A stretch of DNA of 64,000 nt from Eledone cirrhosa. Lineage: Eukaryota. Shown in pieces: positions 1 through 46,178 of this stretch. Within the stretch, counting starts at the first letter, position 1. Every line of letters begins with the position of its first letter. The notes below the pieces were generated by a model. It was given only the letters and a program-made list of their open reading frames with translations. It was not told the DNA's origin and searched no databases. The stretch covers positions 7,812,001 through 7,876,000 of the forward strand of contig OZ024762.1 of assembly GCA_964016885.1 (NCBI GenBank), in the 5' to 3' direction. Made by a program: the position numbers and the translations under genes.

Positions 1-2640
1 CCACCACCGAACTTCCATCTACCACCACAGATCAAACAACCACTGACTTACAATCTACCACCACTGACCTACCATCTACCACCACAGATCAAACAACCAC
101 CGACTTACAATCTACCACCACTGACCTACCATCTACCACCACTGACCTACCATCTACCACCACAGATCAAACAACCACTGACTTACAATCTACCACCACT
201 GAACTACCATCTACCACCACTGAACTACCATCTACCACCACAGATCAAACAACCACTGACTTACAATCTACCACCACTGAACTACCATCTACCACCACAG
301 ATCAAACAACCACTGACTTACAATCTACCAGCACAGAACTACCATCTACCACCACAGATCAAACAACCACTGACTTACAATCTACCACCCCTGAACTACC
401 ATCTACCACCACAGATCAAACAAACACTGACTTACAATCTACCACCACAGATCAAACAACCACTGACTTACAATCTACCACCACCGAACTACCATCTACC
501 ACCACAGATCAAACAACCACTGACCTACCATCTACCACCACAGATCAAACAACCACTGACTTACAATCTACCACCACTGAACTACCATCTACCACAACAG
601 ATCAAACAACCACTGACTTACAATCTACCACCACTGACCTGCCATCTACCACCACAGATCAAACAACCACTGACTTACAATCTACCACCACTGAACTACC
701 ATCTACCACCACAGATCAAACAACCACTGACTTACCATCTACCACCTCTGAACTACCATCTACCACCACAGATCAAACAACCACTGACTTACAATCTACC
801 ACCACTGACCTACCATCTACCACCACAGATCAAACAACCACTGATTTACAATCTACCACCACTGAACTACCATCTACCACCACAGATCAAACAACCACTG
901 ACTTACAATCTACCACCACTGACCTACCATCTACCACCACAGATCAAACAACCACTGACTTACAATCTACCACCACTGAACTACCATCTACCACCACAGA
1001 TCAAACAACCACTGACTTACCATCTACCACCTCTGAACTACCATCTACCACCACAGATCAAACAACCACTGACTTACCATCTACCACCACTGACCTACTA
1101 TCTACCACCACAGATCAAACAACCACTGACTTACAATCTACCACCACTGAACTACCATCTACCACCACAGATCAAACAACCACTGACTTACAATCTACCA
1201 CCTCTGAACTACCATCTACCACCACAGATCAAACAACCACTGACTTACAATCTACTACCACTGAACTACCATCTACCACCACAGATCAAACAACCACTGA
1301 CTTACAATCTACCACCTCTGAACTACCATCTACCACCACAGATCAAACAACCACTGACTTACAATCTACCACCACTGAACCACCATCTACCACCACAGAT
1401 CAAACAACCACTGACTTACAATCTACCACCACTGAACTACCATCTACCACCACAGATCAAACAACCACTGACTTACAATCTACCACCACAGATCAAACAA
1501 CCACTGACTTACAATCTACCACCACCGAACTACCATCTACCACCACAGATCAAACAACCACTGACTTACAATCTACTACCACTGACCTACCATCTACCAC
1601 CACAGATCATACAACCACTGACTTACAATCTACCACCGCTGAACTACCATCTACCACCACAGATCAAACAACCACTGACTTACAATCTACCACCACTGAC
1701 CTACCATCTACCACCACAGATCAAACAACCACTGACTTACAATCTACCACCACTGAACTACCATCTACCACCACAGATCAAACAACCACTGACTTACCAT
1801 CTACCACCACTGAACTACCATCTACCACCACAGATCAAACAACCACTGACTTACAATCTACCACCACTGACCTACCATCTACCACCACAGATCAAACAAC
1901 CACTGACTTACAATCTACCACCACTGAACTACCATCTACCACCACAGATCAATCAACCACTGACTTACAATCTACCCCCACTGACCTACCATCTACCACC
2001 ACAGATCAAACAACCACTCACTTACAATCTACCACCACTGAACTACCATCTACCACCACAGATCAATCAACCACTGACTTACAATCTACCACCACTGAAC
2101 TACCATCTACCACCTCAGATCAAACAACCACTGACTTACAATCTACCACCACTGACCTACCATCTACCACCACAGATCAAACAACCACTGACTTACAATC
2201 TACCACCACTGAACTACCATCTACCACTACAGATGAATCAACCACTGAGTTACCATCTACCACAACAGATCAAACTACCACTGAGCTACCATCTACCACT
2301 ACAGATCAAACCACAATTGAGCTACCATCTACAACAACAGATCAAACCACCACTGAGCTACCTTTTACCACTACAGATCAAACCACCACTGAGCTACCAT
2401 CTACCACTACAGATCAAACAACCACTGGAGTACCATCTAGCACTACAGATCAAACCACCACTGAGCTACCATCTACAACTACAGATCAACTATCCACCAC
2501 TGAGTTACCATCTACAACTACAGATCTAACAAGTACAGAGCTACCATCAACAGACACTGATGAAACTACCACTGATCAACCATCCACCACTGAGTTACCA
2601 CCTACCACCACTGAACAACCAACATCCTCTCCCGCTGCAA
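1..2640 (+). CDS. PTS exon A (partial): Thr-rich 19-aa repeats, then a degenerate tail ending ...PTSSPAA
   Basis: Open frame from position 3; donor GCAA|GTAAGT at 2640/2641, phase 1. Confidence 0.88.
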
Positions 2641-3003
2641 GTAAGTGTCATGTTATTTGTGATATAGAAATATTACGTAGCTTTAGAAATTAAATATATT
2701 CATCATGATATAGTATTATATTTTCTTTTGACAACCAAATGCAGGAATCTATGTAGTTATATTTATTTCTGTGGGCATTTTTAAAGGGATGATTGTGTCA
2801 ATATGACCGTAGTTTAAATGTGGTTGACATTATACCAACTATATTCGTTTAGAATATCGTGAATTCCGTTGTTGGATTCCAATGAGAAATCTTCCTATCA
2901 GAGTTGCACAGATCCAATGGTTGGTTAGTAGTTAAAGGTTTTGATTTGTTTCACTGGGTTTATATATTGTTCTTATATACATATATATATTTATATATGT
3001 ATA

Positions 3004-3048
<45 letters not shown>

Positions 3049-6000
3049 GGCGGCATCATAAGTTCATCATCAGAGGTGATTCTCTTCTCAGAAAATAATA
3101 TATTACACCCTACCTGCACATATTGACTGCTCATTCAGTAAATGATTAAATGTTTTACAAAGATGCATGTTATTCTACAAGGGCGGTGCCCCAGCACGGC
3201 CTCAGCCGGATGGCTGGAACAGGTAAAAGAGTAAAGGAATATATATATATATATATGTAACACTTTCTTTTGTAGATGTCACTGCTATTGTGAGCGCTGT
3301 GATGCACCTGAATGAGGAATACAAAGCTGTATATGAAAACATGGAAGAAGATGAGACAAAAGCGAAAATTTCTGAAATAACTTCTCAGGTAAAGATTTTT
3401 TGTACTATAATATAATCTCATCATCATCATCATTCGTCGACTACTGTCGAGATGATGGATCTCGCTCTCATGCCCCAGAATTCCCTGTCCCCCCATCGCT
3501 GCCCCCAGGTCTTGTCTACTGATTCCCGTATCCCTAGAGATAACGTCATGGAATGACAGCTTACTACTTCTAGTCAGGCTGGAGTCAGGGTTCCAGAGCA
3601 AGAGAGCGGATATGATTTCATTGCTGGCACGGTGACAGTGGCCAGCAAATATAATCTAGGGACCTCACTCTTCGGTGGTATCGTTTAATTCTGTTCCCCT
3701 TAACATATTTATATTTTAACATCGTCAATATTACACAACAACCACTGAAATGGTATGCTTCAGTGTTATAGCAAAAAACAATCAAATAAATGTACAGTTT
3801 TATTATTTCAAGAAATGTTTTTTATGTCTATATCCTCACCATTACTATTAAATATATTATTTTAGAAACGTGAAATTTTGAAAATTTTTGATTTTAGGTG
3901 GATGCGTCAATGAAAAACAACAGTAAATTGCAAGATACGTATGTCGGTAGTAATGTGACAGCATTAAGGTTTGTGCAACATTTAAGATTCTCTCTCTCAC
4001 CTCACACTGCCTCTTTTATTTTCTGACTGTTCAGACTGTCCTCACAAAGACTTTACTTTACCTCAATGACTTGCTATTCATTGTAGCATCAGGCTATATA
4101 TATATATACATAATCTTATATGATGCAGAAAGGGAACGAAATACACCTACAAGTCAGACAGAAATGTCGAATGTTTACCTTGTACGAGGGACACAGGACA
4201 CATGGTCATCGTTTCGTTTTTTTTCCATTTAAAACGAAAAGTGTATTTGTTTGGAAAAATAAATTTGAGGGTATCTTTTCTGAAGGTACATTATGTTGTA
4301 ATCTAATCGAAATAATTTCTTTATTTCAGCAATGGTAGTTTGGTGGTCTTTATCGATCTAATATTTGTGACATTGGAAAAGTTAACTGAAGCAGATTTCA
4401 AGCAATCGATTAACTTAGATAGCGTCCGTAAGAGTTTGGAAACAATTATAAATATTATAAAGGAAAAACTGGAAATAGAGGGTAAAGGTAAGTGACAGAG
4501 CTGATCTAATTTTCTAAGTTCTTATAAAATATTTAACAATAGTGAAGAAGACCGCAAAGAAAGCAAATGTTACTATGTAGACACGAGAAATCATATACAG
4601 GTATAATTCCGTTATAATGAATACCATTATAACGAATCTTTCACTATAACGAAATGTTTTCTCTCTCCGAGGTAATAACAACAAACGCTTGATTTGTTTC
4701 GCTCAATCTCGTTACAACGTATTTATTAAACACACTAATTTGGTAATAACGGGATTTCACTGTATAAAAGAGTTATATTTCAGATGAAATATTTATGAAA
4801 TGTGTCGTTAAGGATATGTAGAATGTAAGTTAGAAATAAATGAGTAAAAATGTGAGAGGAGAAAGATAAATAAAACAACAAAATAGTTTACACCATATCC
4901 TGTTTTACAACTTCAGGTCAAATAGCAACCACTGAGATACTATCTACCACTACAGATCAAATCACTGAGATACCATTTACCACTACAGGTCAAACAACCA
5001 CTGAGCTACCACCTACCGCTACAAATCAAACAATCATTGAGTCACCATCTACTACCACTGAACTCCCAACAACCACTGAGTTACCATCCAGTACCACAAA
5101 ACAAACAACAACCACTGAGTTACCATCTACTACCCCAGAACAACCATCAACCACTGAATTACCGCTCACAACCACAGAACAATCATCCACCACAGAGTTA
5201 CCATCCACCACCACTGAGTTACCATCCACTACCACAGAACAATCATTAACGACTGACTTAACATCCACCAAGTCTGAGTTACCATCTACCACCCCAGAAC
5301 AACCACCAACCACAGTGTTACCGTCTACTACTACAGAACAAAGAACTACCACAGAGTTACCATCCATTACAACAGAACAACCATCAACCACTCAGTTACC
5401 ATCTACTACCACAGGACAACCATCAACTACTGAGTTATCATCCACTACCACAGAACAACCATCAACCACTGTGTTACCAACTACCACTACAGAACAACCA
5501 TCAACCACAGATTTACTATCTACTGCTACAGAACAACGACCAACCACTGAGTTACCATCAACTACCACAGAAGAACCAACAAACACTGAGTTACCATCAA
5601 CAACTGAGCTACCATCAACTACCACAGAACAACCAACACTCAGTAAGTTACCAACTACAAGAACAGATCAAACAACCACTGACATAGCATCTACCACTAC
5701 ATATCAAACCACAACTGAGGTACCATCCACAACTACAGACCAAACCACCACTGAGTTATCATTTACCACAACAGATCAAACAACCACTGAGCTACCATCT
5801 ACAACTATAGATCAAACTACCCCTGAGATACAATCTAGCACTATAGATCAAACAACCACAGAGCTACCATCCACAACTATAGATCAAACAACCACTGAGG
5901 TACCATCCACAAATACAGACCATACTACCACCGAGGTAGCATCTACCACTACAGATCAAACCACCACTGAGCTACCATCTACAACTACAGACGAAACCAT

Positions 6001-9000
6001 CACAGAACTATCATTCACCACTACATATCAAACTACCACTGAGATACCATCTAGCACTACAGATCAAATAACAACCACTGAGATAACATCTACCACAACA
6101 GATCAAATAACAACCATTGAGGTACCATCTACAACTACAGAGCAAACCCCCACAGAGCAATCATCTACGACTACAGATCAAACCACCACTGAGCTACCAT
6201 CTCCTACCACTGAGCTACCATTTACCACTACAGATCAAATAAAAACCACTGATCTATTATCTACCACTACAGATCAGATAAACACTGAACTACCATCTAC
6301 CACCACAGATCAAACAATCACTGACTTACAATCTACCACCACTGAACTACCATCTACCACCACAGATCAAACAACCACTGAGCTACCATTTATCACCACT
6401 GAACTACCATCTACCACCAGAGATCAAACAATCACTGACTTACAATCTACCACCACTGAACTACCATCTACCACCACAGATCAAACAACCACTGACTTAC
6501 AATCTACCACCACTGAACTACCATCTACCACCACAGATCAAACAACCACTGACTTACAATCTACCACCACTGAACTACCATCTACCACCACAGATCAAAC
6601 AACCACTGACTTACAATCTACCACCTCTGAACTACCATCTACCACCACAGATCAAACAACCACTGACTTACAATCTACCACCACTGACCTACCATCTACC
6701 ACCACAGATCAAACAACCACTGACTTACAATATACCACCACTGAACTACCATCTACCACCACAGATCAAACAACCACTGACTTACAATCTACTACCACTG
6801 AACTACCATCTACCACCACAGATCAAACAACCACTCACTTACAATCTACCACCACCGAACTACCATCTACCACCACAGATCAAACAACCACTGACTTACA
6901 ATCTACCACCACTGACCTACCATCTACCACCACAGATCAAACAACCACCGACTTACAATCTACCACCACTGACCTACCATCTTCCAACACAGATCAAACA
7001 ACCACTGACTTACAATCTACCACCACTGAACTACCATCTACCACCACTGAACTACCATCTACCACCACAGATCAAACAACCACTGACTTACAATCTACCA
7101 CCACTGAACTACCATCTACCACCACAGATCAAACAACCACTGAGCTACCATTTATCACCACTGAACTACCATCTACCACCAGAGATCAAACAATCACTGA
7201 CTTACAATCTACCACCACTGAACTACCATCTACCACCACAGATCAAACAACCACTGACTTACAATCTACCACCACTGAACTACCATCTACCACCACAGAT
7301 CAAACAACCACTGACTTACAATCTACCACCACTGAACTACCATCTACCACCACAGATCAAACAACCACTGACTTACAATCTACCACCTCTGAACTACCAT
7401 CTACCACCACAGATCAAACAACCACTGACTTACAATCTACCACCACTGACCTACCATCTACCACCACAGATCAAACAACCACTGACTTACAATCTACTAC
7501 CACTGAACTACCATCTACCACCACAGATCAAACAACCACTCACTTACAATCTACCACCACCGAACTACCATCTACCACCACAGATCAAACAACCACTGAC
7601 TTACAATCTACCACCACTGACCTACCATCTACCACCACAGATCAAACAACCACCGACTTACAATCTACCACCACTGACCTACCATCTTCCACCACAGATC
7701 AAACAACCACTGACTTACAATCTACCACCACTGAACTACCATCTACCACCACTGAACTACCATCTACCACCACAGATCAAACAACCACTGACTTACAATC
7801 TACCACCACTGAACTACCATCTACCACCACAGATCAAACAACCACTGACTTACAATCTACCAGCACTGAACTACCATCTACCACCACAGATCAAACAACC
7901 ACTGACTTACAATCTACCACCACTGAACTACCATCTACCACCACAGATCAAACAAACACTGACTTACAATCTACCACCACAGATCAAACAACCACTGACT
8001 TACAATCTACTACCACTGAACTACCATCTACCACCACAGATCAAACAACCACTCACTTACAATCTACCACCACCGAACTACCATCTACCACCACAGATCA
8101 AACAACCACTGACTTACAATCTACCACCACTGACCTACCATCTACCACCACAGATCAAACAACCACCGACTTACAATCTACCACCACTGACCTAGCATCT
8201 TCCAACACAGATCAAACAACCACTGACTTACAATCTACCACCACTGAACTACCATCTACCACCACTGAACTACCATCTACCACCACAGATCAAACAACCA
8301 CTGACTTACAATCTACCACCACTGAACTACCATCTACCACCACAGATCAAACAACCACTGAGCTACCATTTATCACCACTGAACTACCATCTACCACCAG
8401 AGATCAAACAATCACTGACTTACAATCTACCACCACTGAACTACCATCTACCACCACAGATCAAACAACCACTGACTTACAATCTACCACCACTGAACTA
8501 CCATCTACCACCACAGATCAAACAACCACTGACTTACAATCTACCACCACTGAACTACCATCTACCACCACAGATCAAACAACCACTGACTTACAATCTA
8601 CCACCTCTGAACTACCATCTACCACCACAGATCAAACAACCACTGACTTACAATCTACCACCACTGACCTACCATCTACCACCACAGATCAAACAAACAC
8701 TGACTTACAATATACCATCACTGAACTACCATCTACCACCACAGATCAAACAACCACTGACTTACAATCTACTACCACTGAACTACCATCTACCACCACA
8801 GATCAAACAACCACTCACTTACAATCTACCACCACCGAACTACCATCTACCACCACAGATCAAACAACCACTGACTTACAATCTACCACCACTGACCTAC
8901 CATCTACCACCACAGATCAAACAACCACCGACTTACAATCTACCACCACTGACATACCATCTTCCACCACAGATCAAACAACCACTGACTTACAATCTAC

Positions 9001-12000
9001 CACCACTGAACTACCATCTACCACCACTGAACTACCATCTACCACCACAGATCAAACAACCACTGACTTACAATCTACCACCACTGAACTACCATCTACC
9101 ACCACAGATCAAACAACCACTGACTTACAATCTACCAGCACTGAACTACCATCTACCACCACAGATCAAACAACCACTGACTTACAATCTACCACCACTG
9201 AACTACCATCTACCACCACAGATCAAACAAACACTGACTTACAATCTACCACCACAGATCAAACAACCACTGACTTACAATCTACCACCACCGAACTACC
9301 ATCTACCACCACAGATCAAACAACCACTGACTTACAATCTACCACCACTGACCTACCATCTACCACCACAGATCAAACAACCACTGACTTACAATCTACC
9401 ACCACTGAACTACCATCTACCACCACAGATCAAACAACCACTGACTTACAATCTACCACCACTGACCTACCATCTACCACCACAGATCAAACAACCACTG
9501 ACCTACAATCTACCACCACTGAACTACCATCTACCACCACAGATCAAACAACCACTGACTTACCATCTACCACCTCTGAACTACCATCTACCACCACAGA
9601 TCAAACAACCACTGACTTACCATCTACCACCACTGACCTACCATCTACCACCACAGATCAAACAACCACTGACTTACAATCTACCACCTCTGAACTACCA
9701 TCTACCACCACAGATCAAACAACCACTGACTTACAATCTACCACCACTGAACTACCATCTACCACCACAGATCAAACAACCACTGACTTACAATCTACCA
9801 GCACTGAACTACCATCTACCACCACAGATCAAACAACCACTGACTTACAATCTACCACCACTGAACTACCATCTACCACCACAGATCAAACAAACACTGA
9901 CTTACAATCTACCACCACAGATCAAACAACCACTGACTTACAATCTACCACCACCGAACTACCATATACCACCACAGATCAAACAACCACTGACTTACAA
10001 TCTACTACCACTGACCTACCATCTACCACCACAGATCAAACAACCACTGACTTACAATCTACCACCACTGAACTACCATCTACCACCACAGATCAAACAA
10101 CCACTGACTTACAATCTACCACCACTGACCTACCATCTACCACCACAGATCAAACAACCACTGACTTACAATCTACCACCACTGAACTACCATCTACCAC
10201 CACAGATCAAACAACCACTGACTTACCATCTACCACCTCTGAACTACCATCTACCACCACAGATCAAACAACCACTGACTTACAATCTACCACCACTGAC
10301 CTACCATCTACCACCACAGATCAAACAACCACTGACTTACAATCTACCACCACTGACCTACCATCTACCACCACAGATCAAACAACCACTGACCTACAAT
10401 CTACCACCACTGAACTACCATCTACCACCACAGATCAAACAACCACTGACTTACCATCTACCACCTTTGAACTACCATCTACCACCACAGATCAAACAAC
10501 CACTGACTTACCATCTACCACCACTGACCTACCATCTACCACCACAGATCAAACAACCACTGACTTACAATCTACCACCACTGAACTACCATCTACCACC
10601 ACAGATCAAACAACCACTGACTTACAATCTACCACCTCTGAACTACCATCTACCACCACAGATCAAACAACCACTGACTTACAATCTACTACCACTGAAC
10701 TACCATCTACCACCACAGATCAAACAACCACTGACTTACAATCTACCACCTCTGAACTACCATCTACCACCACAGATCAAACAACCACTGACTTACAATC
10801 TACCACCACTGAACTACCATCTACCACCACAGATAAAACAACCACTGACTTACAATCTACCTCCACTGAACTACCATCTACCACCACAGATCAAACAACC
10901 ACTGACTTACAATCTACCACCACTGACCTACCATCTACCACCACAGATCAAACAACCACTGACTTACAATCTACTACCACTGAACTACCATCTACCACCA
11001 CAGATCAAACAACCACTGACTTACAATCAACCACCACTGAACTACCATCTACCACCACAGATCAAACAACCACTGACTTACAATCTACCACCACTGACCT
11101 ACCATCTACCACCACAGATCAAACAACCACTGACTTACAATCTACCAGCACTGACCTACCATTTACCACCACAGATCAAACAACCACTGACTTACAATCT
11201 ACCACCACTGAACTACCATCTACCACCACTGAACTACCATCTACCACCACAGATCAAACAACCACTGACTTACAATCTACCACCACTGAACTACCATCTA
11301 CCACCACAGATCAAACAACCACTGACTTACAATCTACCACCACTGACCTACCATCTACCACCACAGATCAAACAAACACTGACTTACAATCTACCACCAC
11401 TGACCTACCATCTACCACCACAGATCAAACAACCACTGACCTACAATCTACCACCACTGAACTACCATCTACCACCACAGATCAAACAACCACTGACTTA
11501 CCATCTACCACCTTTGAACTACCATCTACCACCACAGATCAAACAACCACTGACTTACCATCTACCACCACTGACCTACCATCTACCACCACAGATCAAA
11601 CAACCACTGACTTACAATCTACCACCACTGAACTACTATCTACCACCACAGATCAAACAACCACTGACTTACAATCTACCACCTCTGAACTACCATCTAC
11701 CACCACAGATCAAACAACCACTGACTTACAATCTACTACCACTGAACTACCATCTACCACCACAGATCAAACAACCACTGACTTACAATCTACCACCTCT
11801 GAACTACCATCTACCACCACAGATCAAACAACCACTGACTTACAATCTACCACCACTGAACTACCATCTACCACCACAGATAAAACAACCACTGACTTAC
11901 AATCTACCTCCACTGAACTACCATCTACCACCACAGATCAAACAACCACTGACTTACAATCTACCACCACTGACCTACCATCTACCACCACAGATCAAAC

Positions 12001-14873
12001 AACCACTGACTTACAATCTACTACCACTGAACTACCATCTACCACCACAGATCAAACAACCACTGACTTACAATCAACCACCACTGAACTACCATCTACC
12101 ACCACAGATCAAACAACCACTGACTTACAATCTACCACCACTGACCTACCATCTACCACCACAGATCAAACAACCACTGACTTACAATCTACCAGCACTG
12201 ACCTACCATCTACCACCACAGATCAAACAACCACTGACTTACAATCTACCACCACTGAACTACCATCTACCACCACAGATCAAACAACCACTGACTTACA
12301 ATCTACCACCACTGAACTACCATCTACCACCACAGATCAAACAACCACTGACTTACAATCTACCACCACTGAACTACCATCTACCACCACAGATCAAACA
12401 AACACTGACTTACAATCTACCACCACAGATCAAACAACCACTGACTTACAATCTACCACCACTGACCTACCATCTACCACCACAGATCAAACAACCACTG
12501 ACTTACAATCTACCACCACTGAACTACCATCTACCACCACAGATCAAACAACCACTGACTTACCATCTACCACCACTGAACTACCATCTACCACCACAGA
12601 TCAAACAACCACTGACTTACAATCTACCACCACTGACCTACCATCTACCACCACAGATCAAACAACCACTGACTTACAATCTACCACCACCGAACTACCA
12701 TCTACCACCACTGAACTACCATCTACCACCACAGATCAAACAACCACTGACTTACAATCTACCACCACTGAACTACCATCTACCACCACAGATCAAAGAA
12801 CCACTGACTTACAATCTACCACCACTGAACTACCATCTACCACCACAGATCAAACAACCACTGACTTACAATCTACCACCACAGATCAAACAACCACTGA
12901 CTTACAATCTACCACCACCGAACTACCATCTACCACCACAGATCAAACAACCACTGACTTACAATCTACTACCACTGACCTACCATCTACCACCACAGAT
13001 CATACAACCACTGACTTACAATCTACCACCACTGAACTACCATCTACCACCACAGATCAAACAACCACTGACTTACAATCTACCACCACTGACCTACCAT
13101 CTACCACCACAGATCAAACAACCACTGACTTACAATCTACCACCACTGAACTACCATCTACCACCACAGTTCAAACAACCACTGACTTACCATCTACCAC
13201 CACTGAACTACCATCTACCACCACAGATCAAACAACCACTGACTTACAATCTACCACCACTGACCTACCATCTACCACCACAGATCAAACAACCACTGAC
13301 TTACAATCTACCACCACTGAACTACCATCTACCACCACAGATCAATCAACCACTGACTTACAATCTACCCCCACTGGCCTACCATCTACCACCACAGATC
13401 AAACAACCACTGACTTACAATCTACCACCACTGAACTACCATCTACCACCTCAGATCAAACAACCACTGACTTACAATCTACCACCACTGAACTACCATC
13501 TACCACCACAGATCAAACAACCACTGACTTACCATCTACCACCACTGAACTACCATCTACCACCACAGATCAAACAACCACTGACTTACAATCTACCACC
13601 ACTGACCTACCATCTACCACCACAGATCAAACAACCACTGACTTACAATCTACCACCACCGAACTACCATCTACCACCACTGAACTACCATCTACCACCA
13701 CAGATCAAACAACCACTGACTTACAATCTACCACCACTGAACTACCATCTACCACCACAGATCAAAGAACCACTGACTTACAATCTACCACCACTGAACT
13801 ACCATCTACCACCACAGATCAAACAACCACTGACTTACAATCTACCACCACTGAACTACCATCTACCACCACAGATCAATCAACCACTGACTTACAATCT
13901 ACCCCCACTGGCCTACCATCTACCACCACAGATCAAACAACCACTGACTTACAATCTACCACCACTGAACTACCATCTACCACCTCAGATCAAACAACCA
14001 CTGACTTACAATCTACCACCACTGACCTACCATCTACCACCACAGATCAAACAACCACTGACTTACAATCTACCACCACTGAACTACCATCTACCACTAC
14101 AGATGAATCAACCACTGAGTTACCATCTACCACAACAGATCAAACTACCACTGAGCTACCATCTACCACTACAGATCAAACCACAATTGAGCTACCATCT
14201 ACAACAACAGATCAAACCACCACTGAGCTACCTTCTACCACTACAGATCAAACCACCACTGAGCTACCATCTACCACTACAGATCAAACAACCACTGGAG
14301 TACCATCTAGCACTACAGATCAAACCACCACTGAGCTACCATCTACCACTACAGATCAACTATCCACCACTGAGTTACCATCTACAACTACAGATCTAAC
14401 AAGTACAGAGCTACCATCAACAGCCACTGATGAAACTACCACTGATCAACCATCCACCACTGAGTTACCACCTACCACCACTGAACAACCAACATCCTCT
14501 CCCGCTGCAAGTAAGTGTCATGTTATTTGTGATATAGAAATATTACATAGATTTAGAAATTAAATATTTTCATCATGATATAGTATTATATTTTCTTTTG
14601 ACAACCAAATGCAGGAATCTATGTAGTTATATTTATTTCTGTGGGCATTTTTAAAGGGATGATTGTGTCAATATGACCGTAGTTTAAATGTGTTTGACAT
14701 TATACCAACTATATTCGTTTAGAATATCGTGAATTCCGTTGTTGGATTCCAATGAGAAATCTTCCTATCAGAGTTGCACAGATCCAATGGTTGGTTAGTA
14801 GTTAAAGGTTTTGATATGTTTCACTGGGTTTATATATTGTTCTTATATACATATATATATTTATATATGTATA

Positions 14874-14954
<81 letters not shown>

Positions 14955-17900
14955 GGCGGCATCATAAGTTCATCATCAGAGGTGATTCTCTTCTCAGAAA
15001 ATAATATATTACACCCTACCTGCACATATTGACTGCTCATTCAGTAAATGATTAAATGTTTTACAAAGATGCATGTTATTCTACAAGGGCGGTGCCCCAG
15101 CACGGCCTCAGCCGGATGGCTGGAACAGGTAAAAGAGTAAAGGAATATATATATATATATATGTAACACTTTCTTTTGTAGATGTCACTGATATTGTGAG
15201 CGCTGTGATGCACCTGAATGAGGAATACAAAGCTGTATATGAAAACATGGAAGAAGATGAGACAAAAGCGAAAATTTCTGAAATAACTTCTCAGGTAAAG
15301 ATTTTTTGTACTATAATATAATCTCATCATCATCACCATTCGTCGACTACTGTCGAGATGATGGATCTCGCTCTCATGCCCCAGAATTCCCTGTCCCCCC
15401 ATCGCTGCCCCCAGGTCTTGTCTACCGATTCCCGTATCCCTAGAGATAACGTCAGGGAATGACAGCTTACTACTTCTAGTCAGGCTGGAGTCAGAGTTCC
15501 AGAGCAAGAGAGCGGATATGATTTCATTGCTGGCACGGTGACAGTGGCCAGCAAATATAATCTAGGGACCTCACTCTTCGGTGGTATCGTTTAATTCTGT
15601 TCCCCTTAACATATTTATATTTTAACATCGTCAATATTACACAACAACCACTGAAATGGTATGCTTCAGTGTTATAGCAAAAAACAATCAAATAAATGTA
15701 CAGTTTTATTATTTCAAGAAATGTTTTTTATGTCTATATCCTCACCATTACTATTAAATATATTATTTTAGAAACGTGAAATTTTGAAAATTTTTGATTT
15801 TAGGTGGATGCATCAATGAAAAACAACAGTAAATTGCAAGATACGTATGTCGGTAGTAATGTGACAGCATTAAGGTTTGTGCAACATTTAAGATTCTCTC
15901 TCTCACCTCACACTGCCTCTTTTATTTTCTGACTGTTCAGACTGTCCTCACAAAGACTTTACTTTACCTCAATGACTTGCTATTCATTGTAGCATCAGGC
16001 TATATATATATATACATAATCTTATATGATGCAGAAAGGGAACGAAATACACCTACAAGTCAGACAGAAATGTCGAATGTTTACCTTGTACGAGGGACAC
16101 AGGACACATGGTCATCGTTTCGTTTTTTTTCCATTTAAAACGAAAAGTGTATTTGTTTGGAAAAATAAATTTGAGGGTATCTTTTCTGAAGGTACATTAT
16201 GTTGTAATCTAATCGAAATAATTTCTTTATTTCAGCAATGGTAGTTTGGTGGTCTTTATCGATCTAATATTTGTGACATTGGAAAAGTTAACTGAAGCAG
16301 ATTTCAAGCAATCGATTAACTTAGATAGCGTCCGTGAGAGTTTGGAAACAATTATAAATATTATAAAGGAAAAACTGGAAATAGAGGGTAAAGGTAAGTG
16401 ACAGAGCTGATCTAATTTTCTAAGTTCTTATAAAATATTTAACAATAGTGAAGAAGACCGCAATGAAAGCAAATGTTACTATGTAGACACGAGAAATCAT
16501 ATACAGGTATAATTCCGTTATAATGAATACCATTATAACGAATCTTTCACTATAACGAAATGTTTCCTCTCCCCGAGGTAATAACAACAAACGCTTGATT
16601 TGTTTCGCTCAATCTCGTTACAACGTATTTATTAAACACACTAATTTGGTAATAACGGGATTTCACTGTATAAAAGAGTTATATTTCAGATGAAATATTT
16701 ATGAAATGTGTCGTTAAGGATATGTAGAATGTAAGTTAGAAATAAATGAGTAAAAATGTGAGAGGAGAAAGATAAATAAAACAACAAAATAGTTTACACC
16801 ATATCCTGTTTTACAACTTCAGGTCAAATAGCAACCACTGAGATACTATCTACCACTACAGATCAAATCACTGAGATACCATTTACCACTACAGGTCAAA
16901 CAACCACTGAGCTACCACCTACCGCTACAAATCAAACAATCATTGAGTCACCATCTACTACCACTGAACTCCCAACAACCACTGAGTTACCATCCAGTAC
17001 CACAAAACAAACAACAACCACTGAGTTACCATCTACTACCCCAGAACAACCATCAACCACTGAATTACCGCTCACAACAACAGAACAATCATCCACCACA
17101 GAGTTACCATCCACCACCACTGAGTTACCATCCACTACCACAGAACAATCATTAACGACTGACTTAACATCCACCACGTCTGAGTTACCATCTACCACCC
17201 CAGAACAACCACCAACCACAGTGTTACCGTCTACTACTACAGAACAAAGAACTACCACAGAGTTACCATCCATTACAACAGAACAACCATCAACCACTCA
17301 GTTACCATCTACTACCACAGGACAACCACCAACCACTGAGTTATCATCCACTACCACAGAACAAACATCAACCACTGTGTTACCAACTACCACTACAGAA
17401 CAACCATCAACCACAGATTTACTATCTACTGCTACAGAACAACGACCAACCACTGAGTTACCATCAACTACCACAGAAGAACCAACAAACACTGAGTTAC
17501 CATCAACAACTGAGCTACCATCAACTACCACAGAACAACCAACACTCAGTAAGTTACCAACTACAAGAACAGATCAAACAACCACTGACATAGCATCTAC
17601 CACTACATATCAAACCACAACTGAGGTACCATCCACAACTACAGACCAAACCACCACTGAATTATCATTTACCACAACAGATCAAACAACCACTGAGCTA
17701 CCATCTACAACTATAGATCAAACTACCCCTGAGATACAATCTAGCACTATAGATCAAACAACCACAGAGCTACCATCCACAACTATAGATCAAACAACCA
17801 CTGAGGTACCATCCACAAATACAGACCATACTACCACCGAGGTAGCATCTACCACTACAGATCAAACCACCACTGAGCTACCATCTACAACTACAGACGA

Positions 17901-20900
17901 AACCATCACAGAACTATCATTCACCACTACATATCAAACTACCACTGAGATACCATCTAGCACTACATATCAAATAACAACCACTGAGATAACATCTACC
18001 ACAACAGATCAAATAACAACCATTGAGGTACCATCTACAACTACAGAGCAAACCCCCACAGAGCAATCATCTACGACTACAGATCAAACCACCACTGAGC
18101 TACCATCTCCTACCACTGAGCTACCGTTTACCACTACAGATCAAATAACAACCACTGATCTATTATCTACCACTACAGATCAGATAAACACTGAACTACC
18201 ATCTACCACCACAGATCAAACAATCACTGACTTACAATCTACCACCACTGAACTACCATCTACCACCACAGATCAAACAACCACTGAGCTACCATTTATC
18301 ACCACTGAACTACCATCTACCACCAGAGATCAAACAATCACTGACTTACAATCTACCACCACTGAACTACCATCTACCACCACAGATCAAACAACCACTG
18401 ACTTACAATCTACCACCACTGAACTACCATCTACCACCACAGATCAAACAACCACTGACTTACAATCTACCACCACTGAACTACCATCTACCACCACAGA
18501 TCAAACAACCACTGACTTACAATCTACCACCTCTGAACTACCATCTACCACCACAGATCAAACAACCACTGACTTACAATCTACCACCACTGACCTACCA
18601 TCTACCACCACAGATCAAACAACCACTGACTTACAATATACCACCACTGAACTACCATCTACCACCACAGATCAAACAACCACTGACTTACAATCTACTA
18701 CCACTGAACTACCATCTACCACCACAGATCAAACAACCACTCACTTACAATCTACCACCACCGAACTACCATCTACCACCACAGATCAAACAACCACTGA
18801 CTTACAATCTACCACCACTGACCTACCATCTACCACCACAGATCAAACAACCACCGACTTACAATCTACCACCACTGACCTACCATCTTCCAACACAGAT
18901 CAAACAACCACTGACTTACAATCTACCACCACTGAACTACCATCTACCACCACTGAACTACCATCTACCACCACAGATCAAACAACCACTGACTTACAAT
19001 CTACCACCACTGAACTACCATCTACCATCACAGATCAAACAACCACTGACTTACAATCTACCACCACTGAACTACCATCTACCACCACAGATCAAACAAC
19101 CACTGACTTACAATCTACCACCTCTGAACTACCATCTACCACCACAGATCAAACAACCACTGACTTACAATCTACCACCACTGACCTACCATCTACCACC
19201 ACAGATGAAACAAACACTGACTTACAATATACCACCACTGAACTACCATCTACCACCACAGATCAAACAACCACTGACTTACAATCTACCGCCACCGAAC
19301 TACCATCTACCACCACAGATCAAACAACCACTGACTTACAATCTACCACCACTGACCTACCATCTACCACCACAGATCAAACAACCACCGACTTACAATC
19401 TACCACCACTGACCTACCATCTTCCACCACAGATCAAACAACCACTGACTTACAATCTACCACCACTGAACTACCATCTACCACCACTGAACTACCATCT
19501 ACCACCACAGATCAAACAACCACTGACTTACAATCTACCACCACTGAACTACCATCTACCACCACAGATCAAACAACCACTGACTTACAATCTACCACCA
19601 CTGAACTACCATCTACCACCACAGATCAAACAACCACTGACTTACAATCTACCACCACTGAACTACCATCTACCACCACAGATCAAACAACCACTGACTT
19701 ACAATCTACCACCACAGATCAAACAACCACTGACTTACAATCTACCACCACCGAACTACCATCTACCACCACAGATCAAACAACCACTGACTTACAATCT
19801 ACTACCACTGACCTACCATCTACCACCACAGATCAAACAACCACTGACTTACAATCTACCACCACTGACCTACCATCTACCACCACAGATCAAACAACCA
19901 CCGACTTACAATCTACCACCACTGACCTACCATCTTCCACCACAGATCAAACAACCACTGACTTACAATCTACCACCACTGAACTACCATCTACCACCAC
20001 TGAACTACCATCTACCACCACAGATCAAACAACCACTGACTTACAATCTACCACCACTGAACTACCATCTACCACCACAGATCAAACAACCACTGACTTA
20101 CAATCTACCAGCACTGAACTACCATCTACCACCACAGATCAAACAACCACTGACTTACAATCTACCACCACTGAACTACCATCTACCACCACAGATCAAA
20201 CAACCACTGACTTACAATCTACCACCACAGATCAAACAACCACTGACTTACAATCTACCACCACCGAACTACCATCTACCACCACAGATCAAACAACCAC
20301 TGACTTACAATCTACTACCACTGACCTACCATCTACCACCACAGATCAAACAACCACTGACTTACAATCTACCACCACTGAACTACCATCTACCACCACA
20401 GATCAAACAACCACTGACTTACAATCTACCACCACTGAACTACCATCTACCACCACAGATCAAACAACCACTGACTTACAATCTACCACCACTGACCTAC
20501 CATCTACCACCACAGATCAAACAACCACTGACTTACAATCTACCACCACTGAACTACCATCTACCACCACAGATCAAACAACCACTGACTTACAATCTAC
20601 CACCACTGAACTACCATCTACCACCACAGATCAAACAACCACTGACTTACAATCTACCACCACTGACCTACCATCTACCACCACAGATCAAACAACCACT
20701 GACCTACAATCTACCACCACTGAACTACCATCTACCACCACAGATCAAACAACCACTGACTTACCATCTACCACCTCTGAACTACCATCTACCACCACAG
20801 ATCAAACAACCACTGACTTACAATCTACCACCACTGAACTACCATCTACCACCACAGATCAAACAACCACTGACTTACAATCTACCACCTCTGAACTACC

Positions 20901-23566
20901 ATCTACCACCACAGATCAAACAACCACTGACTTACAATCTACTACCACTGAACTACCATCTACCACCACAGATCAAACAACCACTGACTTACAATCTACC
21001 ACCTCTGAACTACCATCTACCACCACAGATCAAACAACCACTGACTTACAATCTACCACCACTGAACTACCATCTACCACCACAGATAAAACAACCACTG
21101 ACTTACAATCTACCTCCACTGAACTACCATCTACCACCACAGATCAAACAACCACTGACTTACAATCTACCACCACTGACCTACCATCTACCACCACAGA
21201 TGAAACAACCACTGACTTACAATCTACTACCACTGAACTACCATCTACCACCACAGATCAAACAACCACTGACTTACAATCAACCACCACTGAACTACCA
21301 TCTACCACCACAGATCAAACAACCACTGACTTACAATCTACCACCACTGACCTACCATCTACCACCACAGATCAAACAACCACTGACTTAAAATCTACCA
21401 GCACTGACCTACCATCTACCACCACAGATCAAACAACCACCGACTTACAATCTACCACCACTGACCTACCATCTACCACCACAGATCAAACAACCACTGA
21501 CTTACAATCTACCACCACTGAACTACCATCTACCACCACTGAACTACCATCTACCACCACAGATCAAACAACCACTGACTTACAATCTACCACCACTGAA
21601 CTACCATCTACCACCACAGATCAAACAACCACTGACTTACAATCTACCACCACTGAACTACCATCTACCACCACAGATCAAACAAACACTGACTTACAAT
21701 CTACCACCACAGGTCAAACAACCACTGACTTACAATCTACCACCACTGACCTACCATCTACCACCACAGATCAAACAACCACTGACTTACAATCTACCAC
21801 CACTGAACTACCATCTACCACCACAGATCAAACAACCACTGACTTACCATCTACCACCACTGAACTACCATCTACCACCACAGATCAAACAACCACTGAC
21901 TTACAATCTACCACCACTGACCTACCATCTACCACCACAGATCAAACAACCACTGACTTACAATCTACCACCACCGAACTACCATCTACCACCACTGAAC
22001 TACCACCTACCACCACAGATCAAACAACCACTGACTTACAATCTACCACCACTGAACTACCATCTACCACCACAGATCAAAGAACCACTGACTTACAATC
22101 TACCACCACTGAACTACCATCTACCACCACAGATCAAACAACCACTGACTTACAATCTACCACCACAGATCAAACAACCACTGACTTACAATCTACCACC
22201 ACCGAACTACCATCTACCACCACAGATCAAACAACCACTGACTTACAATCTACTACCACTGACCTACCATCTACCACCACAGATCATACAACCACTGACT
22301 TACAATCTACCACCACTGAACTACCATCTACCACCACAGATCAAACAACCACTGACTTACAATCTACCACCACTGACCTACCATCTACCACCACAGATCA
22401 AACAACCACTGACTTACAATCTACCACCACTGAACTACCATCTACCACCACAGATCAAACAACCACTGACTTACCATCTACCACCACTGAACTACCATCT
22501 ACCACCAAAGATCAAACAACCACTGACTTACAATCTACCACCACTGACCTACCATCTACCACCACAGATCAAACAACCACTGACTTACAATCTACCACCA
22601 CTGAACTACCATCTACCACCACAGAACAATCAACCACTGACTTACAATCTACCCCCACTGGCCTACCATCTACCACCACAGATCAAACAACCACTGACTT
22701 ACAATCTACCACCACTGACCTACCATCTACCACCACAGATCAAACAACCACTGACTTACAATCTACCACCACTGAACTACCATCTACCACTACAGATGAA
22801 TCAACCACTGAGTTACCATCTACCACAACAGATCAAACTACCACTGAGCTACCATCTACCACTACAGATCAAACCACAATTGAGCTACCATCTACAACAA
22901 CAGATCAAACCACCACTGAGCTACCTTCTACCACTACAGATCAAACCACCACTGAGCTACCATCTACCACTACAGATCAAACAACCACTGGAGTACCATC
23001 TAGCACTACAGATCAAACCACCACTGAGCTACCATCTACCACTACAGATCAACTATCCACCACTGAGTTACCATCTACAACTACAGATCTAACAAGTACA
23101 GAGCTACCATCAACAGCCACTGATGAAACTACCACTGATCAACCATCCACCACTGAGTTACCACCTACCACCACTGAACAACCAACATCCTCTCCCGCTG
23201 CAAGTAAGTGTCATGTTATTTGTGATATAGAAATATTACATAGATTTAGAAATTAAATATTTTCATCATGATATAGTATTATATTTTCTTTTGACAACCA
23301 AATGCAGGAATCTATGTAGTTATATTTATTTCTGTGGGCATTTTTAAAGGGATGATTGTGTCAATATGACCGTAGTTTAAATGTGTTTGACATTATACCA
23401 ACTATATTCGTTTAGAATATCGTGAATTCCGTTGTTGGATTCCAATGAGAAATCTTCCTATCAGAGTTGCACAGATCCAATGGTTGGTTAGTAGTTAAAG
23501 GTTTTGATATGTTTCACTGGGTTTATATATTGTTCTTATATACATATATATATTTATATATGTATA

Positions 23567-23641
<75 letters not shown>

Positions 23642-26600
23642 GGCGGCATCATAAGTTCATCATCAGAGGTGATTCTCTTCTCAGAAAATAATATATTACA
23701 CCCTACCTGCACATATTGACTGCTCATTCAGTAAATGATTAAATGTTTTACAAAGATGCATGTTATTCTACAAGGGCGGTGGCCCAGCACGGCCTCAGCC
23801 GGGTGGCTGGAACAGGTAAAAGAGTAAAGGAATATATATATATATATATGTAACACTTTCTTTTGTAGATGTCACTGCTATTGTGAGCGCTGTGATGCAC
23901 CTGAATGAGGAATACAAAGCTGTATATGAAAACATGGAAGAAGATGAGACAAAAGCGAAAATTTCTGAAATAACTTCTCAGGTAAAGATTTTTTGTACTA
24001 TAATATAATCTCATCATCATCACCATTCGTCGACTACTGTCGAGATGATGGATCTCGCTCTCATGCCCCAGAATTCCCTGTCCCCCCATCGCTGCCCCCA
24101 GGTCTTGTCTACTGATTCCCGTATCCCTAGAGATAACGTCAGGGAATGACAGCTTACTACTTCTAGTCAGGCTGGAGTCAGAGTTCCAGAGCAAGAGAGC
24201 GGATATGATTTCATTGCTGGCATGGTGACAGTGGCCAGCAAATATAATCTAGGGACCTCACTCTTCGGTGGTATCGTTTAATTCTGTTCCCCTTAACATA
24301 TTTATATTTTAACATCGTCAATATTACACAACAACCACTGAAATGGTATGCTTCAGTGTTATAGCAAAAAACAATCAAATAAATGTACAGTTTTATTATT
24401 TCAAGAAATGTTTTTTATGTCTATATCCTCACCATTACTATTAAATATATTATTTTAGAAACGTGAAATTTTGAAAATTTTTGATTTTAGGTGGATGCGT
24501 CAATGAAAAACAACAGTAAATTGCAAGATACGTATGTCGGTAGTAATGTGACAGCATTAAGGTTTGTGCAACATTTAAGATTCTCTCTCTCACCTCACAC
24601 TGCCTCTTTTATTTTCTGACTGTTCAGACTGTCCTCACAAAGACTTTACTTTACCTCAATGACTTGCTATTCATTGTAGCATCAGGCTATATATATATAT
24701 ACATAATCTTATATGATGCAGAAAGGGAACGAAATACACCTACAAGTCAGACAGAAATGTCGAATGTTTACCTTGTACGAGGGACACAGGACACATGGTC
24801 ATCGTTTCGTTTTTTTTCCATTTAAAACGAAAAGTGTATTTGTTTGGAAAAATAAATTTGAGGGTATCTTTTCTGAAGGTACATTATGTTGTAATCTAAT
24901 CGAAATAATTTCTTTATTTCAGCAATGGTAGTTTGGTGGTCTTTATCGATCTAATATTTGTGACATTGGAAAAGTTAACTGAAGCAGATTTCAAGCAATC
25001 GATTAACTTAGATAGCGTCCGTAAGAGTTTGGAAACAATTATAAATATTATAAAGGAAAAACTGGAAATAGAGGGTAAAGGTAAGTGACAGAGCTGATCT
25101 AATTTTCTAAGTTCTTATAAAATATTTAACAATAGTGAAGAAGACCGCAATGAAAGCAAATGTTACTATGTAGACACGAGAAATCATATACAGGTATAAT
25201 TCCGTTATAATGAATACCATTATAACGAATCTTTCACTATAACGAAATGTTTTCTCTCCCCGAGGTAATAACAACAAACGCTTGATTTGTTTCGCTCAAT
25301 CTCGTTACAACATATTTATTAAACACACTAATTTGGTAATAACGGGATTTCACTGTATAAAAGAGTTATATTTCAGATGAAATATTTATGAAATGTGTCG
25401 TTAAGGATATGTAGAATGTAAGTTAGAAATAAATGAGTAAAAATGTGAGAGGAGAAAGATAAATAAAACAACAAAATAGTTTACACCATATCCTGTTTTA
25501 CAACTTCAGGTCAAATAGCAACCACTGAGATACTATCTACCACTACAGATCAAATCACTGAGATACCATTTACCACTACAGGTCAAACAACCACTGAGCT
25601 ACCACCTACCGCTACAAATCAAACAATCATTGAGTCACCATCTACTACCACTGAACTCCCAACAACCACTGAGTTACCATCCAGTACCACAAAACAAACA
25701 ACAACCACTGAGTTACCATCTACTACCCCAGAACAACTATCAACCACTGAATTACCGCTCACAACCACAGAACAATCATCCACCACAGAGTTACCATCCA
25801 CCACCACTGAGTTACCATCCACTACCACAGAACAATCATTAACGACTGACTTAACATCCACCACGTCTGAGTTACCATCTACCACCCCAGAACAACCACC
25901 AACCACAGTGTTACCGTCTACTACTACAGAACAAAGAACTACCACAGAGTTACCATCCATTACAACAGAACAACCATCAACCACTCAGTTACCATCTACT
26001 ACCACAGGACAACCATCAACCACTGAGTTATCATCCACTACCACAGAACAACCATCAACCACTGTGTTACCAACTACCACTACAGAACAACCATCAACCA
26101 CAGATTTACTATCTACTGCTACAGAACAACGACCAACCACTGAGTTACCATCAACTACCACAGAAGAACCAACAAACACTGAGTTACCATCAACAACTGA
26201 GCTACCATCAACTACCACAGAACAACCAACACTCAGTAAGTTACCAACTACAAGAACAGATCAAACAACCACTGACATAGCATCTACCACTACATATCAA
26301 ACCACAACTGAGGTACCATCCACAACTACAGACCAAACCACCACTGAGTTATCATTTACCACAACAGATCAAACAACCACTGAGCTACCATCTACAACTA
26401 TAGATCAAACTACCCCTGAGATACAATCTAGCACTATAGATCAAACAACCACAGAGCTACCATCCACAACTATAGATCAAACAACCACTGAGGTACCATC
26501 CACAAATACAGACCATACTACCACCGAGGTAGCATCTACCACTACAGATCAAACCACCACTGAGCTACCATCTACAACTACAGACGAAACCATCACAGAA

Positions 26601-44600: not shown

Positions 44601-46178
44601 TCTACCACCACTGAACTACCATCTACCACCACAGATCAAACAACCACTGACTTACAATCTACCACCACTGACCTACCATCTACCACCACAGATCAAACAA
44701 CCACTGACTTACAATCTACCACCACTGACCTACCATCTACCACCACAGATCAAACAACCACTGACTTACAACCTACCACAACTGAACTACCATCTACCAC
44801 CACAGATCAAACAACCACTGATTTACAATCTACCACCACTGACCTACCATCTACCACCACAGATCAAACAACCACTGACTTACAACCTACCACAACTGAA
44901 CTACCATCTACCACCACAGATCAAACAACCACTGACTTACCATCTACCACCACTTATCTACCATCTACCACCACAGATCAAACAACCACTGACTTACAAT
45001 CTACCACCACTGACCTACCATCTACCACCACAGATCAAACAACCACTGACTTACAATCTACCACCACTGAACTACCATCTACCACCACAGATCAAACAAC
45101 CACTCACTTACAATCTACCACCACTGAACTACCATCTACCACCACAGATCAAACAACCACTGACTTACAATCTACCCCCACTGACCTACCATCTACCACC
45201 ACAGATCAATCAACCACTGACTTACAATCTACCACCACTGAACTACCATCTACCACCACAGATCAATCAACCACTGACTTACAATCTACCCCCACTGACC
45301 TACCATTTACCACCACAGATCAAACAACCACTGACTTACAATCTACCACCACTGAACTACCATCTACCACCACAGATCAATCAACCACTGACTTACAATC
45401 TACCCCCACTGACCTACCATCTACCACCACAGATCAAACAACCACTGACTTACAATATACCACCACTGACCTACCATCTACCACCACAGATCAAACAACC
45501 ACTGACTTACAATCTACCACCACTGACGTACCATCTACCACCACAGATCAAACAACCACTGACTTACAATCTACCACCACTGACCTACCATCTACCACCA
45601 CAGATCAAACAACCACTGACTTACAATCTACCACCACTGACCTACCATCTACCACCACAGATCAAACAACCACTGACTTACAATCTACCACCACTGACGT
45701 ACCATCTACCACCACAGATCAAACAACCACTGACTTACAATCTACCACCACTGACCTACCATCTTCCACCACAGATCAAACAACCACTGACTTACAATCT
45801 ACCACCACTGACCTACCATCTACCACCACAGATCAAACAACCACTGACTTACAATCTACCAACACTGAACTACCATCTACCACCACAGATCAAACAACCA
45901 CTGACTTACAATCTACCACCACTGAACTACCATCTACCACCACAGATCAAACAACCACTTACTTACAATCTACCACCACTGAACTACCATCTACCACCAC
46001 AGATCAAACAACCACTGACTTACAATCTACCACCACTGACCTACCATCTACCACCACAGATCAAACAACCACTGACTTACAATCTACCACCACTGAACTA
46101 CCATCTACCACCACAGATCAAACAACCACTGACTTACAATCTACCCCCACTGACCTACCATCTACCACCACAGATTAA
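1..46178 (+). CDS. Giant multi-exon mucin with alternating PTS and SEA domains (5' end outside window); join(<1..2640,3276..3388,3898..3968,4330..4487,4917..14510,15182..15294,15804..15874,16236..16393,16823..23203,23869..23981,24491..24561,24923..25080,25510..46178)
   Basis: All 12 introns are GT..AG with matching phases (1,0,2,1 repeated three times). The spliced frame stays open for ~13,400 codons up to TAA at 46176-46178. Thr/Ser-rich repeats alternate with a SEA-like domain containing GSLVV. Confidence 0.88.
3178..3240 (+). mobile_element. 3' tail fragment of an octopod-type SINE in intron 1 (copies at ~15084 and ~23771)
   Basis: CAAGGGCGGTGCCCCAGCACGGCC...GGAACAGGTAAAAGAGTAAAG resembles an Octopus SINE 3' end recalled from memory; not searched. 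Confidence 0.55.
3276..3388 (+). CDS. SEA domain copy 1, exon a: (N)VTAIVSAVMHLNEEYKAVYENMEEDETKAKISEITSQ
   Basis: Acceptor ttcttttgtag|AT, donor CAG|gtaaag; 113 nt, phase 1 to 0; no stops. Confidence 0.88.
3418..3650 (-). mobile_element. 5'-truncated RTE-like LINE 3' end in intron 2 (copies at +11906 and +20593)
   Basis: Minus-strand translation FAGHCHR..LLLWNP..DVISRDTG..M then (frameshift in a G run) DREFW, followed by a (GAT)n tail; parallels the LINE C-terminus at 51791-52071. Confidence 0.7.
3898..3968 (+). CDS. SEA domain copy 1, exon b: VDASMKNNSKLQDTYVGSNVTAL(S)
   Basis: Acceptor ttgattttag|GTG, donor AAG|gtttgt; 71 nt, phase 0 to 2. Confidence 0.85.
4330..4487 (+). CDS. SEA domain copy 1, exon c: (S)NGSLVVFIDLIFVTLEKLTEADFKQSINLDSVRKSLETIINIIKEKLEIEGK(G); contains the G^S cleavage motif
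   Basis: Acceptor tttatttcag|C, donor AAG|gtaagt; 158 nt, phase 2 to 1; GSLVV matches the SEA G^S[VIL]VV motif. Confidence 0.88.
4598..4762. mobile_element. Tc1/mariner-pogo-type MITE in intron 4 (copies 16504..16668, 25191..25355)
   Basis: TA|CAGGTATAATTCCGTTATAATG ... TAATAACGGGATTTCACTG|TA: degenerate TIRs with a TA target duplication and internal TATAACG repeats. Confidence 0.6.
4917..14510 (+). CDS. PTS exon B, 9594 nt (3198 codons)
   Basis: Acceptor caacttcag|GT CAA ATA GCA; in frame with ORF 5315..14563; donor GCAA|GTAAGT; phase 1-1. Confidence 0.88.
6286..14100 (+). repeat. Coding minisatellite, 57-bp unit ACAGATCAAACAACCACTGACTTACAATCTACCACCACTGAACTACCATCTACCACC, with 21-bp and 36-bp sub-unit slippages
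   Basis: Read directly; boundaries approximate. The same array occupies ~1-2230, ~18192-22795 and ~26879-47198. Confidence 0.97.
15182..16393 (+). CDS. SEA domain copy 2 (exons 15182..15294, 15804..15874, 16236..16393)
   Basis: Copy 1 shifted by exactly 11906 nt with the same splice sites; private changes Ala>Asp (15191), Lys>Glu (16336) and one synonymous change. Confidence 0.88.
16823..23203 (+). CDS. PTS exon C, 6381 nt (2127 codons)
   Basis: Same acceptor and donor as exon B; in frame with ORF 17221..23256; phase 1-1. Confidence 0.88.
23869..25080 (+). CDS. SEA domain copy 3 (exons 23869..23981, 24491..24561, 24923..25080)
   Basis: Copy 1 shifted by exactly 20593 nt; protein appears identical to copy 1. 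Confidence 0.88.
25510..46178 (+). CDS. PTS exon D, 20669 nt to the first in-frame stop
   Basis: Same acceptor; in frame with ORF 25908..46178; ends at a CAA>TAA change inside a repeat unit. Confidence 0.8.

Follow-up and report, generated by a model that had tools for sequence, protein, structure and literature searches.

A candidate type II mucin from Eledone cirrhosa in which SEA-like domains alternate with giant Thr-rich rods

What is encoded by a row of giant Thr-rich open reading frames (ORFs) that are separated by near-identical short cassettes? The question is raised by a window of 64,000 nucleotides (nt) of Eledone cirrhosa DNA (assembly GCA_964016885.1, contig OZ024762.1, here C23; window C23:7812001-7876000), which carries on its plus strand a gene that we call gene A. 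The answer we prefer, on which our confidence is evenly balanced, is a type II mucin of the cell surface, built of four likely SEA domains in alternation with four Thr-rich, probably O-glycosylated rods of 2,100-6,900 amino acids (aa); the domains would cleave themselves at NG/SL[IV]V, with the pieces held together non-covalently. Papers are cited below by PMC number.

An earlier note on this stretch, made from the letters alone, had proposed that the Thr-rich ORFs are spliced into one chain of at least ~13,400 aa, in which Pro/Thr/Ser-rich (PTS) blocks alternate with a domain split over exons of 113, 71 and 158 nt. Our analysis bears this out: all of the proposed introns are GT-AG (12/12), the exon phases are consistent, and once joined the exons read through 13,435 codons, none of them for Cys, before a TAA at 46176-46178. 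The 113/71/158-nt exons are found in each of the three window cassettes and link the four Thr-rich exons, and the peptide VTALSNGSLVVFIDLIF is present three times in the joined translation. The parts of gene A within the window, in window positions, are as follows.

1-2640, plus strand: end of PTS exon 1 (last 2,640 nt; the whole exon has 18,240 nt, ~6,080 aa, at C23:7796401-7814640)
3276-4487, plus strand: SEA-like cassette 1 (exons 3276-3388, 3898-3968, 4330-4487)
4917-14510, plus strand: PTS exon 2 (9,594 nt, ~3,197 aa)
15182-16393, plus strand: SEA-like cassette 2 (exons 15182-15294, 15804-15874, 16236-16393)
16823-23203, plus strand: PTS exon 3 (6,381 nt, ~2,126 aa)
23869-25080, plus strand: SEA-like cassette 3 (exons 23869-23981, 24491-24561, 24923-25080)
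25510-46178, plus strand: PTS exon 4 to its first stop (~6,888 aa; includes higher-order duplications of 6,405 and 3,327 bp)
46179-48532, plus strand: PTS-like tail beyond the first TAA (second TAA at 46443-46445; ends in an AT microsatellite)

Measured against a simple consensus with a maximum of 9, the four modelled donors reach 7-9; a score of 7 or more is attained by nine of the 136 GT sites in 2601-4950. The three window units differ from one another by 6-14 substitutions per ~1,934 intron bases and by 0-1 base in each exon; they arose by recent tandem copying of a unit that comprises the cassette and its flanking PTS sequence. Because the units are recent copies, their phase agreement does not amount to three independent observations. 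Stronger evidence comes from cassettes outside the window. A fourth cassette of gene A (SEA0), with only ~30% protein identity to the others, has the same exon plan (110/71/158 nt), as do all seven cassettes on an unplaced contig, C1078; altogether, the plan is kept in 11 of 11 cassettes, every one of which has intact splice sites. The window-type cassette was found at least 10 times genome-wide, three times in the window and seven times on C1078, these counts being lower bounds. From these sequence features, we consider splicing and expression of the gene A model very likely. Three sequencing runs (X1-X3), in which no splice joints occur, behave as DNA of one sample, possibly the assembly's own, and have no bearing on expression.

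The stops at 14563 and 23256, to which the earlier note had pointed as ends of intron read-through, are both present. Read-through after the PTS exons (2641-2693, 14511-14563, 23204-23256) would add ~17 residues with two Cys, and the read-through stop overlaps an ATTAAA hexamer; this could be a route to short isoforms or may merely reflect copying of the intron.

The chain proposed from the window was nevertheless too short. The first PTS exon begins 15.6 kb upstream of the window, and the head of gene A lies 19-39 kb upstream, where it adds the fourth domain and an N-terminal anchor:

C23:7773263-7773283, plus strand: start-codon exon of gene A (7 codons)
C23:7785538-7785823, plus strand: cytosolic tail and transmembrane (TM) exon of gene A (286 nt; basic cluster followed by a hydrophobic stretch)
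C23:7786939-7787048, 7789467-7789537 and 7792864-7793021, plus strand: exons of SEA0 of gene A (motif NGSLIV)

The 18,844 codons that are open from the TM exon onward, free of stops and frameshifts, together with seven from the start exon, give a model of 18,851 aa with a predicted mass of ~2.0 MDa before glycans. Its order is tail, TM helix, SEA0, PTS (6,079 aa), domain, PTS (3,197 aa), domain, PTS (2,126 aa), domain and PTS (6,888 aa). The start exon was identified as the sole non-repeat match between the regions upstream of this TM exon and of a second one, which belongs to a paralog, gene B, in the same window (see below); it ends in a phase-0 donor in both genes. Genome-wide there are exactly two matches to the start exon and two to the TM exon, and in both genes the helix begins at residue 72 and is preceded by a net charge of +4. 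In gene A, the helix spans approximately residues 72-96. No hydrophobic leader precedes it, and the model holds no other strongly hydrophobic segment. Under the positive-inside rule, basic residues N-terminal of the helix are retained in the cytosol, and on this basis the helix is predicted to be a type II signal anchor (N-in/C-out), a topology that we regard as highly probable. The layout of a type I mucin, namely a signal peptide followed by PTS, SEA, TM helix and C-terminal tail, is not found in the model.

Searches with the gene A TM exon for homologs, as well as an alignment-based search with the TM exons, came back empty, and the ESM Atlas gave nothing informative for it. The cytosolic tails of genes A and B (C23:7785538-7785730 and window 61391-61580) have T-P-F-W-P-Y in common and are also conserved at several Tyr, Trp and acidic positions, all of them possible trafficking or binding motifs; the tails have no significant family match.

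Is the repeated domain a SEA domain? It is 113 aa long, compared with 106 positions in the Pfam SEA model (PF01390), and a crude propensity scan gives the order strand-helix-strand-GS-strand-helix, with the GS between predicted strands. On the grounds of its length, predicted strand pattern, motif position, invariant N-G-S-L and the three-exon arrangement directly after a TM helix, we provisionally assign it to SEA, and a SEA fold is likely. Several results weigh against this assignment, all from family and structure searches that used single-exon fragments of 23-52 aa and are weak tests. None of seven single-exon peptides matched PF01390; a genome search with PF01390, in which 10 candidates were scored, did not report the locus; and profile searches of single exons against the PDB gave only weak, unrelated matches. 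A profile built from the cassettes failed to pick up two exons at other places in the genome that match Pfam SEA weakly. AlphaFold modelled exon 3 alone (52 aa) as two helices instead of a strand-helix unit, at low confidence (predicted template modelling score, pTM, 0.39), and the exon 3 and TM exon queries found no homolog in any protein collection searched. In addition, a search of 1.84 billion proteins returned two matches, both repetitive helical proteins that we judged to be chance. The ESM Atlas gave nothing informative for exon 3, nor did joint folding of the peptides from exons 1 and 3 (score 0.02).

Taken at face value, these uniformly negative single-exon searches would suit a 113-aa folded domain of another kind, in which the GS motif is a coincidence. 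We consider this improbable, as the size, the motif position, the juxtamembrane place after a type II helix, the three-exon build and the mucin context all fit SEA, and a divergent SEA domain may need a structure for its recognition, as was the case for Gpr126 (PMC6954182).

Provided that the domain is SEA, does it cleave itself? Analysing the 11 domains, we found N-G-S-L to be invariant, including in SEA0 despite its low identity to the rest. The motif reads GSLVV in 10 of them and GSLIV in one, and in all 11 the crude prediction puts the Gly-Ser at the turn that joins strand 2 to strand 3. Published consensus sequences are G-S[V/I]VV (PMC13643018) and GSxxV with x = V/I (PMC9478142). Three points speak against cleavage here. 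The strict form GS[V/I][V/I]V is absent, with Leu replacing Val/Ile, and a GSLRV site in TMPRSS6 is of uncertain cleavage (PMC2958558). N-G-S also forms an N-glycosylation sequon that spans the scissile bond. Finally, MUC16 has ~56 SEA domains, and in the last two, those tested, no cleavage was found (PMC4456727).

These points lend weight to the view that the mucin is anchored at its front but its domains remain uncleaved, or only SEA0 cleaves, so that the domains are folded spacers multiplied within a duplicated unit, like the SEA repeats of MUC16. Consistent with it, the copies are very recent and travel with their flanking PTS sequence, such that copy number need not be selected, and both copy number (3 versus 7 cassettes) and spacer length differ widely between the paralogs. 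The invariance of N-G-S-L across 11 domains, one of them strongly diverged, argues the other way. So does the tolerance of cleaved sites for variation, examples being GSVIV and GSVIA in enteropeptidase and matriptase (PMC2958558) as well as GSIVA (PMC6954182), together with the finding that strain outweighs the nucleophile and sequence in driving the reaction (PMC10556640). On balance, uncleaved spacers seem rather doubtful to us, and, given a SEA fold, we lean towards predicting self-cleavage from the motif.

The PTS exons make up most of the model. In four exons of 2,126-6,888 aa, with 57-nt repeats, Thr and Ser account for 55-56% of residues, Pro for 6-10% and Asp plus Glu for 10-15%, which is the Pro/Thr/Ser-rich tandem-repeat composition of a mucin. 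The Cys-rich domains of gel-forming mucins (VWD, CysD or cystine-knot) are absent from the model, whose only Cys in 18,844 aa lies within the TM helix. The earlier note had remarked on the lack of Cys and concluded that disulfide gel formation is not indicated, a conclusion that holds for the whole ectodomain. PTS exon 1 combines two repeats, one of 13 aa in its first half (C23:7796401-~7806000) and a different one of 19 aa in the remainder.

Are these arrays maintained as coding sequence? In 12,196 codons scored before the first stop, no stop was observed where the mutation spectrum predicts 16.3, and there were 215 synonymous changes against 165.5 expected. The repeats copy one another, with ~3 stops expected among 109 distinct variant types, and the stop depletion is modest evidence for coding. 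Each of the 656 anchor spacings is divisible by three, but so are the repeat units. Openness by itself carries little weight because a second reading frame of the repeats is nearly open too, with 15-45 stops per exon, a point that tells against reading the arrays as coding. Within the cassettes, the nonsynonymous proportion (pN) lies below the synonymous one (pS) in seven of seven comparisons, albeit with small counts.

The reading frame of gene A ends within a repeat. Two CAA-to-TAA changes lie in the last exon (46176-46178 and 46443-46445), and the PTS repeat continues past the second for 702 further codons into the AT microsatellite at ~48534. The segment 46179-48532 is likely 3' untranslated region, or would be coding if the stops are assembly errors. 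A genetic code in which TAA is reassigned was rejected, as two TAA stand against more than 640 CAA at equivalent repeat positions of PTS exon 4.

The same features raise the possibility that no full-length product is made, either because the array was over-expanded in assembly, because the gene is decaying or because the short read-through forms dominate. Besides the two CAA-to-TAA changes, the near-identity of the units and the 3.3- and 6.4-kb duplications within PTS exon 4 could be read in this way, as could run X2, in which the ratio of cassette depth to single-copy depth is just ~1.0-1.5. The ratio is ~3-4 in X1 and X3, as expected of three copies, but all of these ratios come from one sample and contig depth is no copy number, so that they offer a weak hint. 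The copies are not identical: units and higher-order repeats show 0.2-0.7% differences (14 differences/6,575 for the 6,405-bp duplication, 17 differences/4,339 for the 3,327-bp one). Moreover, the long frame is uninterrupted, the splice sites are intact in every cassette, and the C1078 paralog likewise stops inside its last PTS exon and runs on into decayed PTS-like sequence. We hold the failure to make a full-length product to be very improbable.

Taken as a self-cleaving type II mucin, gene A could work as follows. The signal anchor would thread the chain into the endoplasmic reticulum and leave the tail in the cytosol, and the PTS rods would be O-glycosylated into acidic brushes. Each domain would fold and cleave, its halves remaining joined via their sheet until pulled, and the ectodomain, having no Cys, would not form a disulfide gel. 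A glycosylated mucin residue extends over ~0.25 nm, at which the 18,290 PTS residues would span ~4.6 micrometres. Under pulling force, such a chain could part and be shed in pieces; strain-driven cleavage and force-dependent parting have been described for mucin SEA domains (PMC13643018; PMC10556640). Shear drag would load the membrane-proximal link most, so that stepwise shedding would require either that SEA0 holds more firmly than the other links or that the force is applied by a particle bound near the tip.

What does the paralog add? Gene B has a head in the window, and a headless body is found on C1078:

50472-50492, plus strand: coding part of the gene B start-codon exon (7 codons)
61391-61673, plus strand: gene B cytosolic tail and TM exon (283 nt; 47-48% identical to that of gene A)
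63287-63486, no strand: assembly gap directly after the gene B TM exon, into which the C1078 body may fit
C1078:159,800-189,700 (unplaced contig), minus strand: seven-cassette body (splice sites intact in 7/7)

The C1078 body has 3,470 open codons with spacers of 256-388 aa, no Cys and a stop inside its last PTS exon. It is without a head, and the gene B head is without a body in the 364 kb examined. As the assembly holds two heads and two bodies, this suggests that the C1078 body belongs in the gap after the gene B head. Neither the 364 kb of C23 nor C1078 yielded SEA0-like exons for gene B. We also considered C1078 as an allele of gene A, which is less likely than a paralog given its different first PTS sequence, its 82-96% protein identity and, again, the two heads and two bodies. 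A role as C-terminal anchor of the gene A chain was also considered for the TM exon at 61391 and rejected: this exon has its own start exon and its basic residues lie N-terminal of the helix, the donor-like site at 48532 in the gene A tail is in phase 2 versus phase 0, and two stops intervene.

The earlier note had stressed spacers of unusual length. As a design feature, this is weakened by the short spacers that accompany the same cassette in the paralog, from which we infer that spacers of thousands of residues reflect repeat expansion in one paralog. The C1078 copies 4-6 have 96% protein identity to the window's cassettes, copies 1-3 only 82-83%, a pattern that points to exchange between the paralogs by gene conversion or unequal crossing-over. 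More broadly, and tentatively, octopods might possess a separately built class of mucins with inverted topology, in which serial self-cleaved SEA domains act as fuses on a chain of several micrometres, the coat is trimmed stepwise from its tip while the anchor stays, and two tandem paralogs tune segment size ~tenfold.

Several neighbouring elements were also seen. One intron of the paralog contains, between repeats, a 386-aa ORF (C1078:175074-176231, minus strand) whose product has a GIY-YIG domain (E 7e-7); it resembles a Penelope-type retroelement. A related terminal repeat sequence occurs in the window at ~55600-56950. A 152-bp tandem repeat at window 60840-61317 is also arrayed on C1078 at ~62-67 kb. 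Downstream of the paralog, at C1078 ~157,000, is a stretch resembling, presumably, U6 snRNA; an Rfam scan of window 48500-64000 found nothing.

Near-identical candidate cleavage domains in series, joined to one diverged proximal domain, would constitute a natural test of SEA cleavage as a mechanical fuse, and at 113 aa the domain lends itself to expression and pulling. Were the domains uncleaved, the gene would still be unusual in its architecture and an example of rapid intragenic duplication. That the gene was not found in the protein collections searched suggests that genes of this kind may have escaped annotation and may be lacking from the databases used in mucus proteomics. In the available parts of a report on octopus mucus proteomics, mucin-like, mucin-4- and mucin-19-like proteins are named and no SEA mucin (PMC11431876); short search terms were absent from the octopus mucus proteomics supplement of PMC10138644.

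How, then, does gene A compare with known SEA proteins? No SEA mucin of a mollusc or of type II topology emerged from a literature search with most subscription journals outside its coverage, which turned up papers on a viral type II mucin-like glycoprotein. The alternation of SEA and PTS blocks is already known: the amphibian precedent mentioned in the earlier note exists in Xenopus tropicalis, where the alternating proteins are described as secreted (PMC4948705). Gene A shares these alternating blocks and differs, in a comparison by description only, in its predicted N-terminal signal anchor and its spacers of up to ~6,900 aa. As far as our search extends, the N-terminal anchoring that is predicted for gene A was not found in print for such a mucin.

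According to one review, transmembrane mucins are type I proteins that have their break point next to the membrane (PMC13643018), and two further papers, in the parts available, put SEA and the TM segment towards the C-terminus or regard MUC16 as the sole multi-SEA mucin (PMC9080433 and PMC1552070). MUC1, MUC3A/B, MUC12 and MUC17 resemble gene A in being single-pass proteins with a huge single-exon PTS region and a juxtamembrane SEA domain with a G-S site; they are type I, with a C-terminal tail and one SEA domain (PMC13643018). Relative to these vertebrate SEA mucins, gene A has an inverted order, four SEA-like domains, no EGF domains and a GSL[IV]V motif. MUC16 is similar in size (~22,152 versus 18,851 aa) and in its many SEA domains, whereas it is type I, carries SEA within 156-aa repeats and showed no cleavage in the two domains tested (PMC4456727). 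A type II mucin of this size would, if true, mean that anchor, SEA and PTS parts can be assembled in reverse order.

In predicted topology, gene A resembles the type II transmembrane serine proteases. Its model lacks their CUB, LDLa and protease domains as well as ectodomain Cys. A C-terminal trypsin-like protease domain is not in the model, which ends at the stop of PTS exon 4, where there is no strong donor, the flanks not having been scanned with a protease profile. As is predicted for gene A with its likely SEA domains, enteropeptidase, matriptase and TMPRSS6 have a cytosolic N-terminus followed by a TM helix and then SEA, in some of them cleaved at G-S; the SEA domain of TMPRSS6 is made of three exons (PMC2958558), as are the SEA-like domains of gene A.

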